Shown here: positions 209 to 57,924 of the stretch, one piece after another
How positions within the stretch are numbered: the first letter of the stretch is position 1
How the letters are laid out: the number at the start of each line of letters is the position of its first letter
Source: Minisyncoccia bacterium
GTDB lineage: Bacteria; Patescibacteriota; Minisyncoccia; Phycocordibacterales; UBA9973
Assembly (NCBI GenBank): GCA_038249055.1
Contig: JBBRWS010000002.1
Location: 78,118 to 142,117, forward strand
Reading direction: 5' to 3'
DNA length: 64,000 bases
Made by a program: the position numbers and the translations under genes
Notes under the pieces: generated by a model
The model's input: only the letters and a program-made list of their open reading frames with translations
What the model was told of the DNA's origin: nothing
The model's database searches: none

Positions 209-226
209 ATATGTTATTCTAAATAT

Positions 227-349
227 ATGCTCCCGTTAGAAGCCGCGGTCATGATATCTAATTGCGGGGTGTAAAAAAATATTATTTAAATTAATTATGC
301 AGGTTGGTTTCATTATAGAATTGACCACGACCTGCTTCTAACGGGATGC
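227..349 (+). repeat. Start-codon-overlapping inverted-repeat leader element, copy 1
   Basis: Left arm tCCCGTTAGAAGC (231-243) is perfectly complementary over 13 bp to right arm GCTTCTAACGGGa (334-346). Direct repeat ATGC at 227-230 and 346-349. Right-arm ATG 346-348 is the gatC start codon. Same architecture recurs at 43583-43712 and 57799-57924. Confidence 0.6.
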
Positions 350-642
350 AACTAGAAGATATTAAGAAATTAGCCCAACTCGCTCGTATAGATATGAGCG
401 ATGAAGAAATGACCAAAATTGCAAAAGATTTTGATCCTATTTTGGCGTATGTATCTCAAGTGCAAGAAGCATTGAAATTAAGTGAACATATTTCTCTTGA
501 TAAAGAACCAGAAAATTATTTTTTACACAATATAATGCGTGAAGATAAAGTTACAAATAATAGGGGAGAATATACAGAAAAAATTATGGCGGAGGTTCCC
601 GACACAGATAGTGGATTTATAAAAGTAAAACAAATATTATAG
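346..642 (+). CDS. gatC: Asp-tRNA(Asn)/Glu-tRNA(Gln) amidotransferase subunit C
   Basis: 98-aa ORF. Small acidic GatC-like sequence (…DFDPILAYVSQV…) immediately upstream of gatA, the conserved gatCA order. Confidence 0.85.
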   Translation: MQLEDIKKLAQLARIDMSDEEMTKIAKDFDPILAYVSQVQEALKLSEHISLDKEPENYFLHNIMREDKVTNNRGEYTEKIMAEVPDTDSGFIKVKQIL

Positions 643-3485: not shown

Positions 3486-3507
3486 CTTTCAAGTCCCTTC
3501 GACTGCC
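3486..3507 (+). repeat. Copy of tRNA-Asp 3' end (T-stem 3' strand plus acceptor: CTTTCAAGTCCCTTCGACTGCC), inverted relative to the gene
   Basis: 20/22 identical to the 3' terminal 22 nt of the tRNA-Asp sense sequence. Forms a 19-bp inverted repeat with 3583-3604 across a 75-nt spacer containing two hairpins. Confidence 0.6.
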
Positions 3508-3545
3508 ATTAAAAACAACTAATGTTGCTTTTAATGGCAAATAAA

Positions 3546-3573
3546 TAAAAGCCCCTATTAAAAGGGGCTTTTA
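3546..3573. terminator. Bidirectional rho-independent terminator hairpin (AAAAGCCCCTATTAAAAGGGGCTTTT)
   Basis: Perfect 9-bp GC-containing stem with A/T runs on both sides. Sits just 3' of tRNA-Asp. Confidence 0.6.
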
Positions 3574-3581
3574 TTTATTTG

Positions 3582-3655
3582 CGCAGTCGAAGGGACTTGA
3601 ACCCTCAACCTCCCACGTGACAGGCGGGTGCTCTAACCAGTTGAGCTACAACTGC
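3582..3655 (-). tRNA. tRNA-Asp (anticodon GTC)
   Basis: Minus-strand cloverleaf GCAGTTG/TAGCTCAACTGGTTAGAGCA/CCCGCCTGTCACGTGGG/…GGTTCAAGTCC/CTTCGACTGC+G. 7-bp acceptor with one G-U, TTCAAGT T-loop, anticodon loop CT-GTC-AC. CCA not encoded. Confidence 0.85.
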
Positions 3656-34807: not shown

Positions 34808-34933
34808 GCGATTCCGCTTATCGTCCGAACTTTTGTTTTCAAAAGTTTTAGGAAATAATTTAATTATTTTAAATAAAAGCCCTCAATTGAGGGCTTTTAT
34901 TTTTTGTCTGATTATACATGTTATAATATAAAT

Positions 34934-35203
34934 ATGTATTTTATTTATATTTTAGAGTGCTCAGATAAAAGTCTTTATACCGGATCCACAAATGATCTAG
35001 AAAAAAGACTCCATAAGCACAACAATTTAAAATCCGGAGCGCATTATACTAAAATACGCCGACCCGTAGTTCTAAAATATTCAGAAGAATTTGATACTTT
35101 AAAAGAAGCTAGGAGAAGAGAGGCCGAACTTAAAAGGTGGAGCAGAATTAAAAAATTAAATTTGATATCAATGTGTTTAGATGATAATGACATAAAAGAT
35201 TAG
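34934..35203 (+). CDS. GIY-YIG nuclease superfamily protein (second copy of the small stand-alone type)
   Basis: MYFIYILECSDKSLYTGSTNDLEKRLHKHNN…; homologous to the protein at 3646-3885. Confidence 0.7.
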   Translation: MYFIYILECSDKSLYTGSTNDLEKRLHKHNNLKSGAHYTKIRRPVVLKYSEEFDTLKEARRREAELKRWSRIKKLNLISMCLDDNDIKD

Positions 35204-43546: not shown

Positions 43547-43582
43547 CTCCAAATAAACTATAAAATATAGTATAATATCGAT

Positions 43583-43712
43583 ATGGATCCCGTTAGAGAT
43601 GTGTTTGTTGTATTTTATGGGATACTTAGAAATATTTATAAGGTTTGTATTATTAACTCTAATTAATAAGATACGTCCCACCTAAAGAGGGACTATCTCT
43701 AACGGGATGGAT
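43583..43712 (+). repeat. Start-codon-overlapping inverted-repeat leader element, copy 2
   Basis: Arms ATCCCGTTAGAGAT (43587-43600) and ATCTCTAACGGGAT (43695-43708) form a perfect 14-bp IR. Direct repeat ATGGAT at 43583-43588 and 43707-43712. Internal hairpin GTCCCACCTAAAGAGGGAC. TATAAT at 43571-43576 puts a likely TSS at the left arm. Right-arm ATG is the CPBP start. Confidence 0.6.
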
Positions 43713-46595: not shown

Positions 46596-46683
46596 TAAAA
46601 AGCGAGCTCGTAAGGCTCGCTTTTTTGTTTATATTTATTGTGTTAAAATTGGTCTATTATAAATTTAATTTATCCACCATGTT

Positions 46684-51556: not shown

Positions 51557-51594
51557 ATTTCTTGCAATTTTAAGATTTTGTAGTATTCTTAGTA

Positions 51595-51780
51595 TATGCG
51601 TTGAAGAGGCCTCGTCCGAGTAATACGGGCAGACATCACCTCTGAGCTTATGGGAAGAAAGCCTTTATTGGTAAGTAGAACCCTCTAAATGAGAAGTAAA
51701 CGAGGTGGTACCACGTGTTTCAATAGAAACTCGTCCTTGTATAGCAATTATTGTAATTGTTGTACGAGGACGAGTTTTTT
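51595..51780 (+). promoter_or_regulatory. T-box riboswitch leader with Ile (AUC) specifier, upstream of ileS
   Basis: T-box-like GAGGTGGTACCACG (consensus AGGGTGGNACCGCG). ACATCA in the Stem-I 3' strand. AGTAATA distal loop. Intrinsic terminator ACTCGTCCTTGTA…TACGAGGACGAGTTTTTT at 51729-51780. Confidence 0.55.
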
Positions 51781-51781
51781 G

Positions 51782-51893
51782 TGTCCCGTACTAAATTTTG
51801 ATTCAATTTATATTACATATATTAAGTTTATCTTTTAAATAAATATTGTATTTATATTAAAAATATATATTGAAAATTTTAGTACGGGGATAG
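51782..51893 (+). repeat. IR-flanked AT-rich insert between the T-box terminator and ileS (arms GTCCCGTACTAAATTTT / AAAATTTTAGTACGGGGA)
   Basis: Inverted repeat of about 15 bp (one indel) spaced by 75 nt of low-complexity AT sequence. Terminal CCCGT resembles the CCCGTTAGA family termini. Confidence 0.4.
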
Positions 51894-52095
51894 TTTAAAT
51901 TAATAGTTTAGGTACTTCATTAAATATTAAAATTTTTCAAGTCCTCGGATGAGGGAGGACGAGGGGCCAGACCATTCAAAATTTTATATTTAATTACGTA
52001 CCGATTTAACCAGTAGTTGATTCAATTAATGATTCTGATGAATTGTTTATTGAATAAGATTTTTTATAAATAATTTGTTAAGTTTAATAAAATAT

Positions 52096-55000
52096 ATGGA
52101 CGAAAAAAACCCAAAAACTAATAGTGCACTTAGAGAAGAAGAAGTTTTAAAATTTTGGAAAGAGAATGAAATTTTTAAAAAGAGTTTAGAAAAAGATTCT
52201 CCTAAGGGTGAATATGTTTTTTATGAAGGGCCACCTACTGCAAATGGGAAACCAGGAATCCATCATTTAGAAGCTCGTGCTTTTAAGGATGCTATCCCTC
52301 GATATAAAACAATGAAAGGATATCATGTTGGAAGAAAAGGTGGGTGGGATACTCACGGTCTTCCTGTGGAACTTCAGGTAGAAAAAAAATTAGGTCTATC
52401 TTCAAAAAAAGCTATTGAAGAATATGGGGTTGCTAAATTTAATAAAGAATGTAAAGAAAGTGTGTGGGAATATACTGATCTATGGGAAAAATTTACCGAG
52501 AGAATTGGTTTTTGGGTTGATCAAGAAAATCCATACGTTACATATCATAATGATTACATTGAATCAGTTTGGAATGTTATTAAAGAAGCAAATAAACAAG
52601 ATTTACTTTATAAGGATTATAAAGTTGTACCTTGGTGTCCTAGGTGTGGAACAGGTCTTTCTTCTCACGAGCTTGCTCAAGGGTATGTTGATGTAAAAGA
52701 TTTATCAATATATGCAAAGTTTAAAATCAAAGGGAAAGAAAATACTTATATTCTTGCCTGGACCACAACTCCATGGACTCTTCCAGGAAATGTAGCCTTG
52801 GCTGTCGGTGAGAAAATAATGTATGTAAAAGTGAAAGCGGGGGAAGATTTTTATATTTTAGCTGAATCTCGATATCCATTTGTATCCCAGGAGTATCAAA
52901 TTGTTGAGAAAATAAAAGGTGAAGATTTAATTGGTTTGCAATATGAACCACTTTATCCTTATCTTGAAAATATAATTTCTGATTCTGAAAAACCTAAACT
53001 AGAAAAAGCTTATAAGATTTATAATGCAGATTTTGTGACAACTGAAGATGGAACAGGAGTGGTGCACACAGCTGTAATGTACGGGCAAGATGATTTTGAA
53101 TTAGGAAATAAAATTGGTTTACCAAAACATCATTTGGTAGGTCTTGATGGAAAGTTCTTAGCGGGGACGGGATTTTTAGAAGGACGATTTGTTAGAGACG
53201 AAGAAGTGGCTGTAGATATTATAAAGGATTTGGCTCATAGAGGTTTTCTCTTTAAAAAAGAAAAATATGAACACTCCTATCCACATTGTTGGCGTTGTAA
53301 AACAGCACTTATATATTATGCTCGGGATTCTTGGTACATAAGGATGTCTTCACTTAGGGATAAACTTATTAAAGAAAATGAAAATATAAATTGGGAACCT
53401 TCTCATATAAAAGAAGGACGTTTTGGTGAATGGTTAAAAGATATTAAAGATTGGGCAATTTCTAGAGAAAGATATTGGGGAACTCCACTTCCTGTTTGGT
53501 CCTGTTTGGAATGTAAAAAAATGGAGGTACTTGGAAGTATTGAAGATATTAAATCTAAAACCAAAAAATCTGGAAATAAATACTTTATAATGAGACACGG
53601 GGAAACTGAATGTAATATAAGAGGGGAAGTAAGTGATACTGTAAATAATGATGATAAATTAACTAAACTTGGCCGTGAGCAAGTTTTAAACTCTGTAAAA
53701 GGATTAAAGAAAAAAAATATTGACCTAATAATCATTTCTCCTTTTGTGAGAACAAAAGAAACTGTCGATATCTTAGCTTTAGAGATGGATTTTAACAAAG
53801 ACAATATTTTATTTGATGATAGATTGCATGAAATGTCTGTACCTATGTATGAAGGTAAAAAATGGGAAGATTATCATAATGATTATCCAAAATCAGTAGA
53901 AAACTTTTATAAAGCACCAGAAGGAAATGAATCATATGAAGATGTGAGAAGAAGGTCCATGAGTTTTTTATATGATATTGAAAAAAAATATTCAGGAAAA
54001 AATATTTTGATTATTACTCATGGAAGTCCTGTTTGGTTAATGTTTTCTGAGGTTAATGGTTTAAGTACTTCCGAATCTCTAGGGATAATAGCCAGAGATA
54101 ATAGTTATTGCTATTTAAATAATGGAGAATTTATAGAGCTTCCTTTTGTACCAGTACCTCATGATGAAAATTATAAGGTTGATTTACACAAACCATATAT
54201 TGATGAAATAAATCTAACTTGTGAATGTGGAGGAGAATTATCTAGAGCAAAGGAAGTAATGGATGTCTGGCTTGATTCTGGCTCAATGCCTTTTGCACAG
54301 AGTCATTATCCTTTTGAAAAAAAGGAAATACAATATCCCGCCGATTTTATAAGTGAAGCTGTCGATCAAACCCGTGGTTGGTTTTACACACTTCATGCAG
54401 TCGGAGTTATTATGGGAAGGGGAAATGCATATAAAAATGTAATTTGTCTTGGTTTATTACTTGATGCAAACGGGAAAAAGATGTCAAAATCTGTGGGAAA
54501 TGTTGTAGATCCATGGGCTATGATGGATAAATATGGAGTAGATACAATTAGACTTTGGATGTATTCAGTGAATCAACCAGGGGAGCCAAAAAACTTTGAT
54601 GAAAAAATTATTTCTGAATTACATAACAAAGTTTTTAATTTGCTGTATAACGTTTTAGCTTTTTACGAATTATATAGAGATGAAAAAGTAGAAAATAGAA
54701 AGGAAAAAGTAGAAAGTCAGAATGTTCTTGATCAATGGATTCTAACTCGTCTTGATGAACTTATAATCATAACTACAATAAATCTAGATGATTATAAGCT
54801 TCTTGAACCTGTTCGTGCCATTCGTGAATTTATAGACGATCTTTCTACTTGGTATTTACGACGCTCTCGTGAAAGAATAAAAGAAGGAGATGTTGAAGCA
54901 AAAATTACCTTATATAATGTTTTTAAAATCCTATCTAAATTAATGGCACCTTTTGCTCCATTTACGGCTGAAGATATTTGGCAAAAATTAAGAAATGAAG

Positions 55001-55548
55001 ACGATGAAGAGAGTGTACATTTATCAGGATGGCCTAAAAATGAAGAAAGTAAAAAAGAGGAAATAGAAAAAATTATTAAAGAAATGAGAGAGGTTAGAGA
55101 TGTCGTAACTCTTGGTTTGCAGGCAAGACAAAAAGTTGGTATTCCAGTACGACAACCACTTGGTGAATTACGAATTACAAACTATGATTTAAAAGAAGAA
55201 TATTTAGAAATTATTAAAGATGAGCTAAATGTTAAGATGGTAAAGTTTTTAGAAGATGTTGAACAAAAAATAGAATTGGATACATATATAACAGAGGATT
55301 TAAAAAATGAAGGTCAGTGTCGTGAACTATTAAGAAGTATTCAAGATATAAGAAAGAAAAATGGATTAAATCCAAATGATGTTATAATTCTTAGTATTGA
55401 TACGAATGTGTCTGGACAAGAATTAATAAATAAATTTAAAAAGGAAATAATGAAAGCAGTTAGTGCAAAAGAAATACAAATTGAAGAAAATAATGGAATA
55501 GAGATAAAAATTGATGAATTTGTATTTAAGGTTGTAGTAGAAAAATAA
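52096..55548 (+). CDS. ileS: Isoleucine--tRNA ligase with an inserted histidine-phosphatase (PGAM/SixA-like) domain
   Basis: HIGH-type motif PPTANGKPGIHHLE, editing-domain TTPWTLPGN, WAISRERYWGTPLPVW, KMSKS. Between WGTPLPVW and DVWLDSGS (about 60 aa in E. coli IleS) sits a roughly 200-aa insert carrying FIMRHGETECN and ILIITHGSPVWLM (approx. nt 53560-54150). Start at ATG 52096 (the track TTG at 52075). Confidence 0.9.
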   Translation: MDEKNPKTNSALREEEVLKFWKENEIFKKSLEKDSPKGEYVFYEGPPTANGKPGIHHLEARAFKDAIPRYKTMKGYHVGRKGGWDTHGLPVELQVEKKLGLSSKKAIEEYGVAKFNKECKESVWEYTDLWEKFTERIGFWVDQENPYVTYHNDYIESVWNVIKEANKQDLLYKDYKVVPWCPRCGTGLSSHELAQGYVDVKDLSIYAKFKIKGKENTYILAWTTTPWTLPGNVALAVGEKIMYVKVKAGEDFYILAESRYPFVSQEYQIVEKIKGEDLIGLQYEPLYPYLENIISDSEKPKLEKAYKIYNADFVTTEDGTGVVHTAVMYGQDDFELGNKIGLPKHHLVGLDGKFLAGTGFLEGRFVRDEEVAVDIIKDLAHRGFLFKKEKYEHSYPHCWRCKTALIYYARDSWYIRMSSLRDKLIKENENINWEPSHIKEGRFGEWLKDIKDWAISRERYWGTPLPVWSCLECKKMEVLGSIEDIKSKTKKSGNKYFIMRHGETECNIRGEVSDTVNNDDKLTKLGREQVLNSVKGLKKKNIDLIIISPFVRTKETVDILALEMDFNKDNILFDDRLHEMSVPMYEGKKWEDYHNDYPKSVENFYKAPEGNESYEDVRRRSMSFLYDIEKKYSGKNILIITHGSPVWLMFSEVNGLSTSESLGIIARDNSYCYLNNGEFIELPFVPVPHDENYKVDLHKPYIDEINLTCECGGELSRAKEVMDVWLDSGSMPFAQSHYPFEKKEIQYPADFISEAVDQTRGWFYTLHAVGVIMGRGNAYKNVICLGLLLDANGKKMSKSVGNVVDPWAMMDKYGVDTIRLWMYSVNQPGEPKNFDEKIISELHNKVFNLLYNVLAFYELYRDEKVENRKEKVESQNVLDQWILTRLDELIIITTINLDDYKLLEPVRAIREFIDDLSTWYLRRSRERIKEGDVEAKITLYNVFKILSKLMAPFAPFTAEDIWQKLRNEDDEESVHLSGWPKNEESKKEEIEKIIKEMREVRDVVTLGLQARQKVGIPVRQPLGELRITNYDLKEEYLEIIKDELNVKMVKFLEDVEQKIELDTYITEDLKNEGQCRELLRSIQDIRKKNGLNPNDVIILSIDTNVSGQELINKFKKEIMKAVSAKEIQIEENNGIEIKIDEFVFKVVVEK

Positions 55549-57728: not shown

Positions 57729-57798
57729 TCACGAATAAATAAAACCCTATACTTTTTAGGGTTTTATTTATTTTATCTGAATGTGTTAAAATAGATGC

Positions 57799-57924
57799 AT
57801 GAATCCCGTTAGAAACCGCGGTCACGGTTATAATAGGAAAATTAATAAATCATTAAATTTAATTTAAACAATCTCGCATTTATTTGTAAAAATATTAATC
57901 GCGATCTGTTTCTAACGGGATGAA
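57799..57924 (+). repeat. Start-codon-overlapping inverted-repeat leader element, copy 3
   Basis: Arms ATCCCGTTAGAAAC (57803-57816) and GTTTCTAACGGGAT (57908-57921) form a perfect 14-bp IR. Direct repeat ATGAA at 57799-57803 and 57920-57924. Internal CCGCGGTCA shared with copy 1. TGTGTTAAAAT extended -10 just upstream. Right-arm ATG is the start of the hydrolase gene. Confidence 0.6.

Follow-up and report, generated by a model that had tools for sequence, protein, structure and literature searches.

Small hairpin-forming elements, probably mobile, that sit on and rebuild start codons in Patescibacteria and other bacteria

Elements on three start codons

We analysed a 64,000-nucleotide stretch of contig JBBRWS010000002.1 from a Minisyncoccia bacterium (Patescibacteriota; assembly GCA_038249055.1), hereafter called the window. 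It contains three elements of about 117 nucleotides (nt), each of which ends on the start codon of a gene (Table 1). The elements carry terminal inverted repeats of 13-15 bp, YCCCGTTAGA plus N3-4 on the left and N3-4 plus TCTAACGGGR on the right. The exact 9-mers CCCGTTAGA and TCTAACGGG lie 96-100 nt apart within each pair and, when the 64 kb were scanned with no mismatch allowed, were confined to these three pairs. Complementarity of the arms extends 3-4 nt further inward, with different bases in each copy (AGC/GCT, GAT/ATC and AAC/GTT), and 1-2 nt outward. In all three copies, the base that follows ...CGGG is the A of the gene's ATG (346, 43707 and 57920). The genes that start there encode GatC, a Rce1/CPBP-type protease and a Ser_hydrolase protein (Pfam), and are unrelated to one another. 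On these points, the positions of the copies, the restriction of the exact arm pairs to them and the abutment of the right arm on three unrelated open reading frames (ORFs), the original prediction was borne out.

The arms had also been read as covarying. This reading held, as their complementarity continues past the core and the predicted folds of the three copies (-32 to -42 kcal/mol) are far stabler than those of shuffled sequences (z -3.5 to -5.2). A Shine-Dalgarno sequence precedes 1 of 58 window genes, many ATGs have a TATAAT-like -10 box 5-8 nt upstream, and most genes begin ATGAA or ATGGA. The scarcity of Shine-Dalgarno sequences and the closeness of the -10 boxes suggest that the window genes are largely leaderless. 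In each window copy, an ATG at the left end (ATG1) opens a short upstream ORF (uORF), and the gene begins at the ATG at the right end (ATG2).

Table 1. Coordinates of the elements in the window and of their parts
Feature	Position	Strand	Remarks
Element copy 1, tip to tip	231..346	+	T-CCCGTTAGA-AGC ... GCT-TCTAACGGG-A; interior type B (CGCGGTC ... GACCACG-ACCT)
Left copy of original start, ATGC	227..230	+	A227, A of the old ATG; left duplication shortened by 1 nt to TGC
Right target duplication TGCA, copy 1	347..350	+	A346 plus TG form the gatC start codon, 346-348
uORF from left ATG, copy 1	227..274	+	MLPLEAAVMISNCGV, then stop
Resident -10-like hexamer TATTCT	215..220	+	6 nt before original ATG; host promoter, outside the element
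Element copy 2, tip to tip	43588..43707	+	T-CCCGTTAGA-GAT ... ATC-TCTAACGGG-A; interior type A
Subterminal hairpin, copy 2	43675-43679 / 43689-43693		GTCCC / GGGAC
Left target duplication TGGA, copy 2	43584..43587	+	Original ATG 43583-43585; resident -10 TATAAT 43571-43576
Right target duplication TGGA, copy 2	43708..43711	+	Rebuilt Rce1/CPBP start codon 43707-43709
Element copy 3, tip to tip	57804..57920	+	T-CCCGTTAGA-AAC ... GTT-TCTAACGGG-A; interior type B
Left target duplication TGAA, copy 3	57800..57803	+	Original ATG 57799-57801; resident extended -10 TGTGTTAAAAT 57782-57792
Right target duplication TGAA, copy 3	57921..57924	+	Rebuilt Ser_hydrolase start codon 57920-57922
Fourth element, sister family	51784..51889	+	Arms CCCGTACTAAATTTT / AAAATTTAGTACGGG; not on a start codon; directly after T-box terminator in ileS leader

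The count of three holds for the exact arm pairs, but a fourth copy with sister arms had been overlooked (Table 1); it came to light in the relaxed scan described below. In related loci, which we cite by number, the same type of arm is also found on the start codons of gatC (L170-172) and GlyRS (L141). The T-box leader that this fourth copy follows (51592-51780; Rfam RF00230, E = 4e-7, 38.7 bits, which is below the gathering score) has its terminator hairpin at 51727-51777 and lies upstream of the ileS ATG at 52097. From the fourth element, the leader continues for about 200 nt to this ATG and contains another hairpin there. The isoleucyl-tRNA synthetase ORF itself (52075-55548) holds a His_Phos_1 (histidine-phosphatase) domain inside the synthetase, at residues 504-668.

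Empty and filled sites in relatives

Orthologous loci in relatives, which had been proposed as a check on mobility, include both empty and filled sites for all three copies. We fetched 44 related loci by a metagenome scan with the window ArgRS (47-84% amino-acid identity) and, for copy 1, located GatC homologues on their contigs. The nearest named relatives of the window are Paceibacterota/Nomurabacteria metagenome-assembled genomes (MAGs). Precise empty sites were found for each copy, and the difference between filled and empty site is the element plus a 4-nt duplication (TGCA, TGGA and TGAA for copies 1, 2 and 3). Thus, the elements are inserted DNA.

The site of copy 3 is empty in L121, the closest relative, and in L124, L147, L150, L127 and L138, where the sequence reads ...TGTGTTAAAAT-N6-ATGAAAAAAGT; the filled site in the window reads ...TGTGTTAAAAT-N6-ATGAA-(T CCCG...CGGG A)-TGAAAAAAGT. 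The site of copy 2 is empty in L124, L133, L142, L154, L156 and L158, which have TATAAT-N6-ATGGAT... without an element. L121 holds an orthologous copy 2 that has decayed: ATG1 and both arms are eroded, and the gene persists. The site of copy 1 is empty in L168 (...ttattctaaacat/ATGCAACTAG, that is, ...AACAT/ATGCAAC).

The gatC site of copy 1 has a more complex history. L173 and L174 have an orthologous filled site about 86% identical to window copy 1, with identical arms; the differences between the window and L173 copies include one compensatory change in the inner stem P2 (see below). As the flanks in L173 are ATGCA-T...A-TGCA, the left duplication of window copy 1 must have been shortened by one base. 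In L170-172, this site is occupied by another member, with sister arms CCCGTAGTAAATTTT, instead of the type B element of the window and L173; this points to independent insertions by different members. Additionally, GatC and GatA of the empty L168 are more similar to those of the window (89.5% identity) than are those of the filled L173 (85.0%). This suggests that the element can be lost without a footprint, although independent insertions could also account for it.

The empty sites also show what the element did not bring. The stretch atatgttattctaaa, which holds TATTCT, is kept at the empty L168 site and at the filled gatC sites, and in the empty relatives of copies 2 and 3 the -10 box stands at the same distance from the ATG. 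These boxes are therefore resident promoters of leaderless host genes and not parts of the element. The original prediction had considered a mobile, MITE-like (miniature inverted-repeat transposable element) module carrying promoter, leader and start codon. Its mobility and its ATG-containing duplications are supported. A portable promoter is rejected, and the start codon is not carried whole, as the element supplies only a terminal A or G that is completed by the duplicated TG.

Duplicated targets, architecture and start-codon preference across the family

The family extends well beyond the window. A scan of 596 Gb, one genome per species, with the pattern CCCGTTAGA-N83-113-TCTAACGGG found at least 139 copies in at least 120 genome stretches. 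Among the titles of 80 of these stretches, almost all are Patescibacteria (candidate phyla radiation, CPR; including Saccharibacteria, Parcubacteria and Paceibacterota), Omnitrophota or Planctomycetota, with a few Deltaproteobacteria, Edwardsbacteria and Stahlbacteria MAGs. By our own arithmetic for uniform base composition, as opposed to the output of a tool, a few hundred chance matches would be expected in 596 Gb. The arms, however, extend at least 3 nt past the 9-mer in 70 of 82 gene-start copies from other genomes, and an identical 4-nt direct repeat stands in a fixed register (l5-l2 = r2-r5) in 93 of 137 copies from other genomes, compared with 8.8% after permutation. These two features argue that the family matches are not due to chance. 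A relaxed scan of about 614 kb (the window and relatives) gave 12 matches and none in shuffled sequence; with the permutation of the flanking repeats, such shuffled-sequence scans reject a chance origin. A viral collection yielded only 3 matches, and phage carriage was rejected on this ground.

The short direct repeats around the window copies are genuine target duplications, as had been suspected, but their length is 4 nt (TGNN) and not the varying lengths first given. The tips between arm and duplication covary, being T.A in 67 and C.G in 13 of the 82 gene-start copies (oriented by the gene). At gene starts, the duplications outside the tips are TGAA, TGGA, TGAG, TGGG and TGCA. In 12 cases with C...G tips, the left copy remains ATG and the gene now begins with GTG. 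Taken with the empty sites, these data define the insertion. The element is YCCCGTTAGA...TCTAACGGGR with 3-5 further complementary bases, and its insertion point is directly behind the A of ATG. The purine at its 3' end and the duplicated TG recreate ATG or GTG before an intact ORF. Upstream of the insert, the old ATG keeps the surroundings in which initiation took place, which in the window genome are a leaderless 5' end. The preferred target is T-R-R-R after a purine.

Away from start codons, the duplications are diverse: TAAA/TTTA occur 14 times, and TATA, TTGA, TCAA, CTGA, TAGA, TTCG, CGCA and CTTG once each. About 84% of them match T-R-R-R, and TTAA is absent among the 93 exact repeats. 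The usual duplication in Omnitrophota and Planctomycetota copies is TAAA. Copies of this kind lie at tight gene junctions (L005, L033, L052:6471, L055 and others); in several of these, the preceding ORF ends on the left TAA, and 0-10 nt separate the element from the following ATG. Their interiors have two covarying hairpins in common, for example GACGGTGG...CCACCGTC and CCACCGAC-TAAA-GTCGGTGG.

At least 15 copies have hybrid junctions: upstream they read N-CYTG-Y-CCCG, and towards the gene they retain the TGNN of the target (for example L170:889-1000, L150:4632-4751 and L112:4807-4918). Empty orthologous sites of such copies indicate that the CYTG is foreign to the target. Copies of this class have no upstream ATG, and in them the entire start codon is base-paired in the stem.

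Inside the arms, two layouts recur. Type A copies, which are many and include window copy 2, have a 7-bp hairpin (P2) beside one arm only: ...ACGG-(GGNNNNN loop NNNNNCC)-T-RYY-TCTAACGGG. In type B copies, of which window copies 1 and 3 are examples, this stem arises by long-range pairing (CGCGGTC...GACCGCG-ACCT). In an alignment of 30 type A copies, 97% of cells are paired, and six of the seven P2 pairs and four pairs of the P1 extension have changed on both sides. The asymmetric interior is found in both orientations relative to the gene, as expected for a DNA transposon with symmetric ends, with a bias of 22:6 towards the hairpin lying near the gene (p = 0.004). A strand-specific count of wobbles, as a sign of a stem at the RNA level, gave no clear signal, with 13 G.U against 8 A.C on the gene-sense strand. 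The Rfam covariance models gave no match at gathering score, and relaxed searches gave noise only (E >= 0.34, copies 1 and 2). Element sizes range from about 24 to 135 nt, and the elements contain no transposase ORF, only short, non-conserved uORFs.

The loop varies widely: it is 3 nt long in L072 and L088, and in L091 it holds an entire tRNA-Val gene. In this last case (L091:432-538), 13-bp family arms enclose the tRNA-Val(GAC) gene within a tRNA cluster, and a fragment like the 3' half of a tRNA follows the right arm. Another copy (L035:1916-2019) lies in the 5' end of a tRNA-Leu gene, where the terminal GGG(G) replaces the first G's of the tRNA and so rebuilds the gene in the way that start codons are rebuilt.

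Of 140 arm pairs, 88 are followed, at the base after ...CGGG, by the start of an ORF 60 or more codons long, and 61 of the 66 TGNN-flanked copies are exactly on an ORF start. The window has 39 ATGRR sites at start codons and 67 in intergenic sequence. If all non-coding ATGRR sites were equally tolerated, about 37% of insertions would be expected at starts; the observed excess has a p of about 4e-21. Among relatives that were not chosen for the element, eight of nine independent insertions, by our count, are at the ATG of a gene's 5' end (p = 0.002). Within a single small clade, three insertions, each different, have affected the 5' end of the GlyRS gene: a sister-arm copy at the true start (L141:11796-11862), an in-frame insertion of 26 codons at Met9 (L150:21212-21294), and another member at Met9, where the old N-terminus is truncated and the new ATG comes from inside the element (L127:18179-18268). 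The upstream context of the insertions is heterogeneous, with a -10 box 5-8 nt upstream in 18 of 67, a Shine-Dalgarno sequence in about 9 and neither in 40. We rejected the targeting of transcription start sites or open complexes as a general rule, because only these 18 have a -10 box and GlyRS was also hit at an internal methionine.

L150 and L127 have a divergent SHMT, about 50% identical to the window protein, with an element on its start. In the window, SHMT has a leader of about 32 nt (46640-46683; ...attacaaatctaat...) behind an TGTGNTAAAAT promoter, and this arrangement is conserved in nearly all relatives, unlike the leaderless neighbours.

Given that a stable stem takes in r1-r2 of the start codon, the element could instead be a host cis-regulatory leader shared by regulated genes, whose start codons it would mask in the manner of a thermosensor or riboregulator, as the original prediction had also proposed. 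The arms that remain identical between window and L173 copies diverged overall by about 14%, the compensatory change in P2 and the interior bias towards the gene all agree with this idea. However, the host genes are functionally unrelated (GatC, CAAX protease, hydrolase, SHMT, GlyRS and many others), close relatives have the same genes with intact promoters and no element, and the gene persists in L121, where the orthologous copy has lost ATG1 and the stem. Additionally, single copies interrupt a T-box leader and a tRNA gene, and others lie at stop/start junctions. We regard it as extremely unlikely that the element is primarily a regulatory leader: its copies are polymorphic insertions in unrelated genes, the interior is found in both orientations, and the arms in L121 have decayed. 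Exaptation may have occurred later.

Expression of the interrupted gene and the nature of the element

The uORF that opens at ATG1 begins M-(N/D/S)-P-V-R. In two of the three frames, a stop codon is provided at the right end of the element, either as a TAA in the arm, ending 4 nt before ATG2, or as a TGA that overlaps ATG2 (ATGA); a uORF in the remaining frame would run on into the gene as a fusion. Of 67 copies, 23 have no stop in the ATG1 frame anywhere in the interior, compared with open frames in 12 of 134 for the other sense frames, 28 of 201 for antisense frames and 8.9% in shuffles (p about 9e-9). By frame, the open uORFs are 15 of 31 in the arm-TAA frame and 8 of 22 in the ATGA frame, so that 23 of 53 out-of-frame copies are open and none of the 14 in-frame copies is. 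The 23 open interiors are mutually unrelated (median identity 0.56, compared with 0.54 when shuffled); thus, the open frames have been maintained rather than inherited. A conserved peptide was rejected, since the uORF products share only the arm-encoded M-x-P-V-R. The original prediction had likewise judged that the peptide was probably not the conserved entity; the non-random frame and stop had escaped it.

A uORF kept open up to a stop that the element supplies suggests translational coupling by termination and reinitiation. We propose that ribosomes initiate at the old ATG1 and read the short uORF through the element, which would melt the terminal hairpin. They would then stop at the element-supplied codon beside ATG2 (TAA or ATGA) and re-initiate at ATG2. 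Alternatively, the 14-16-bp terminal stem may loop the insert out, so that ATG2 adjoins the old initiation context. By either route, an insertion into a start codon would be nearly harmless, and such copies could survive and accumulate. The gene interrupted by an element probably stays usable.

The stem between two start contexts recalls the bypass of T4 gene 60 and the hairpin-bridged ribosome-binding site of gene 38, in which a stable hairpin lies between two identical codon contexts (here AUGRA...AUGRA) or between an initiation context and a start. The insert might be dealt with at the RNA level, either by a nuclease that cuts the stem and leaves a leaderless mRNA at ATG2 or by a ribosome that shunts from ATG1 to the identical ATG2. 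Several features fit such a route. The elements end where a functional RNA begins (at start codons, at the tRNA-Leu 5' end in L035 and, as arms that bracket tRNA-Val, in L091), the leaderless host genes make a 5'-terminal AUG important, identical take-off and landing sequences (AUGRA...AUGRA) flank the stable hairpin, and in the CYTG class, which lacks ATG1, the stem pairs with all of ATG2. Nevertheless, we consider removal of the insert from the RNA, or its bypass, very unlikely as the explanation of the family. A uORF held open to an element-supplied stop argues for ribosomes that translate through rather than hop, and the uORF statistics favour read-through with re-initiation. Unlike gene 60, there is no stop codon after ATG1, the take-off codon, and the gap is about 120 nt and not 50. 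Neither a ribozyme nor any other Rfam family matched, and the L035 copy is equally well explained by the terminal GGG(G) that rebuilds the tRNA 5' end.

The elements have terminal inverted repeats, target duplications, presence/absence polymorphism, small size, no transposase and multiple copies, which are the marks of a MITE. We therefore think it likely that they are widespread, non-autonomous, hairpin-forming, MITE-like DNA transposons that nest on and rebuild start codons. They resemble Correia (CREE/NEMIS), RUP, ERIC and Nezha elements in being about 100-150 bp long, without an ORF and with terminal repeats that fold into a long hairpin, and they share with Correia elements and other MITEs a target duplication, many copies near genes and co-transcription with a neighbour. 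Correia elements duplicate TA, have unrelated 26-bp repeats, belong to a single genus and are intergenic. In contrast, the present family duplicates 4 nt, spans several phyla, and sits on and rebuilds the start codon. Like the palindromic elements of Rickettsia (RPEs), which are palindromes of about 100-150 bp tolerated in genes and translated as part of the host protein, one copy (GlyRS of L150) is an in-frame insertion. Unlike RPEs, the family avoids in-frame read-through, and the gene is normally saved by the rebuilt start codon. In concept only, and with no evolutionary relationship, they recall the introners of eukaryotes, in which transposon end and target duplication recreate the interrupted signal. 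That signal is a splice site in introners and here a start codon used through translation initiation or re-initiation, not splicing. Elements derived from IS200/IS605 (PATEs) and REP/REPIN-RAYT elements, which are characterized by subterminal hairpins at both ends and a 4-5-nt target, were rejected as models: they lack a duplication or terminal repeats and are oriented by their target, whereas the present elements have a duplication, perfect repeats and both orientations.

For the mobilizing activity, a cut-and-paste mechanism like that of piggyBac/IS1380 would appear to fit best, given the 4-bp duplication, the CCC...GGG ends, the seemingly footprint-free loss and the hybrid flanks, whose junctions are compatible with a 4-nt flap from the donor. 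The present ends may resemble those of piggyBac/IS1380 elements, which also begin CCC...GGG. The target differs, being mostly R/TRRR here and not TTAA, and a further covarying Y/R stands between duplication and CCC. During piggyBac transposition, the element leaves with 4-nt flaps from the donor site, which is then rejoined seamlessly (PMC7351741). As a prokaryotic outgroup of piggyBac, the transposases of bacterial IS1380 are commonly used (PMC10813416). Carry-over of such flaps from a donor could yield the hybrid CYTG junctions, in which case only the daughter duplex with RTG on the gene side would survive.

Several results weigh against a MITE-like transposon as we describe it. Neither the window nor the roughly 1.5 Mb of loci that we fetched yielded an autonomous element or a transposase with these ends, of the piggyBac/IS1380 kind or any other. 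No gene recurs as a neighbour in an all-against-all clustering of 1,305 ORFs from 120 loci, in which the largest family is present in 9 loci, and arm pairs at long range (0.4-4 kb) are only pairs of separate small elements. The fixed CYTG in at least 15 copies is not predicted by simple fill-in duplication, and flap carry-over leaves the near-constant CYTG of a foreign 4-mer unaccounted for. The conserved subterminal hairpin P2 is not classic for the ends of DDE transposons. The excess at start codons goes beyond tolerance, so that a factor for targeting or retention is missing from the model. Last, the uORFs of the window (15, 27 and 22 codons) stop early, 40-70 nt before ATG2, and coupling cannot be the whole story for them; in these copies, the terminal stem that brings ATG2 beside the old context, or another route, must operate.

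The statement in the original prediction that the window holds no transposase is upheld for 70 window ORFs scanned against Pfam, among which there is neither transposase nor integrase. The only nuclease-like item in the window screen is a stand-alone GIY-YIG domain protein of 99 aa (34904-35203).

A different view of mobility, a form of which the original prediction also listed, would replace transposition by site-specific recombination. The enzyme would be a tyrosine recombinase, a serine recombinase or one that recognizes hairpins in folded single-stranded DNA, as with attC or the attP hairpin of CTX phage. It would recombine the site TCTAACGGGR-NNNN-YCCCGTTAGA of an excised circle with targets via a 4-nt overlap, and the apparent duplication would be the overlap region. 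Integron attC sites are imperfect hairpins of about 60-140 nt directly upstream of ORFs, with outer boxes GTTRRR/YYYAAC, a covarying inner stem and a variable loop. The GTTAGA/TCTAAC of the present arms fits these boxes, and here too only the outer stem is conserved in sequence, P2 covaries and the loop ranges from 3 nt to a tRNA gene, which recalls the R-box, L-box and variable loop of attC. Hybrid junctions with CYTG on one side and TGNN on the other could be an overlap heteroduplex resolved by replication, and targeting guided by homology would agree with 4-mers that differ by lineage, Patescibacteria having TGRR and both Omnitrophota and Planctomycetota TAAA.

We nonetheless hold recombination, though a serious contender for the mobilizing chemistry, to be unlikely. 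The order of the core motifs is reversed: GTTAGA is on the 5' arm of both strands, followed by TCTAAC, whereas attC reads 5'-RYYYAAC ... GTTRRRY-3' with recombination at G/TT, and the boundaries of the present elements lie outside CCC/GGG. Target flanks show no conservation resembling the arms, the 4-mers at non-start sites are diverse, and an overlap of 4 nt is atypical for both tyrosine and serine recombinases. No integrase lies beside the copies, no integrase was found in the window and no cassette arrays are seen; the neighbours are housekeeping genes in conserved synteny. An integron attC site in the strict sense was rejected on core-box order and context.

Returning to the MITE-like transposon, a bolder form of it may be considered, though we find it doubtful. 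In this form, start codons are an actively exploited safe harbour. The ends would have evolved for translational invisibility, with a purine tip that restores RTG, stops in two frames but not in the third, and a terminal stem. Ribosomes loaded at the old ATG would be handed over to the rebuilt one by reinitiation or by shunting across the hairpin, and the element would actively find start codons or stop/start junctions rather than only survive at them. It would then be an analogue of an intron at the level of translation, present across several phyla.

A literature search found no relevant description of the arm sequences or of MITEs on start codons in a leaderless or CPR context. If our model is correct, insertion into a start codon with built-in repair of the interrupted signal would be a new way for mobile DNA to live in compact genomes, and it would explain how the streamlined, leaderless-mRNA genomes of Patescibacteria tolerate repeats. 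The model predicts hundreds of natural leaders with a uORF and a hairpin that have a measurable effect on translation. The tag YCCCGTTAGA...TCTAACGGGR could be used to trace horizontal exchange among Patescibacteria, Omnitrophota and Planctomycetota. The elements also carry a warning for annotation, as the true initiation context of many genes may lie about 120 nt upstream of the called start. The mobilizing enzyme would be of interest to genome engineers if it proved to be a piggyBac-like transposase from bacteria that excises seamlessly and targets sites other than TTAA.

One further inverted repeat lies elsewhere in the window. The 3' end of tRNA-Asp (gene at 3581-3655, minus strand) recurs nearby, inverted and without mismatch over 19 nt (3488-3506 / 3583-3601). 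The two 19-nt copies flank a terminator-like palindrome at 3537-3582, and the arrangement may be a partial tRNA duplicate.

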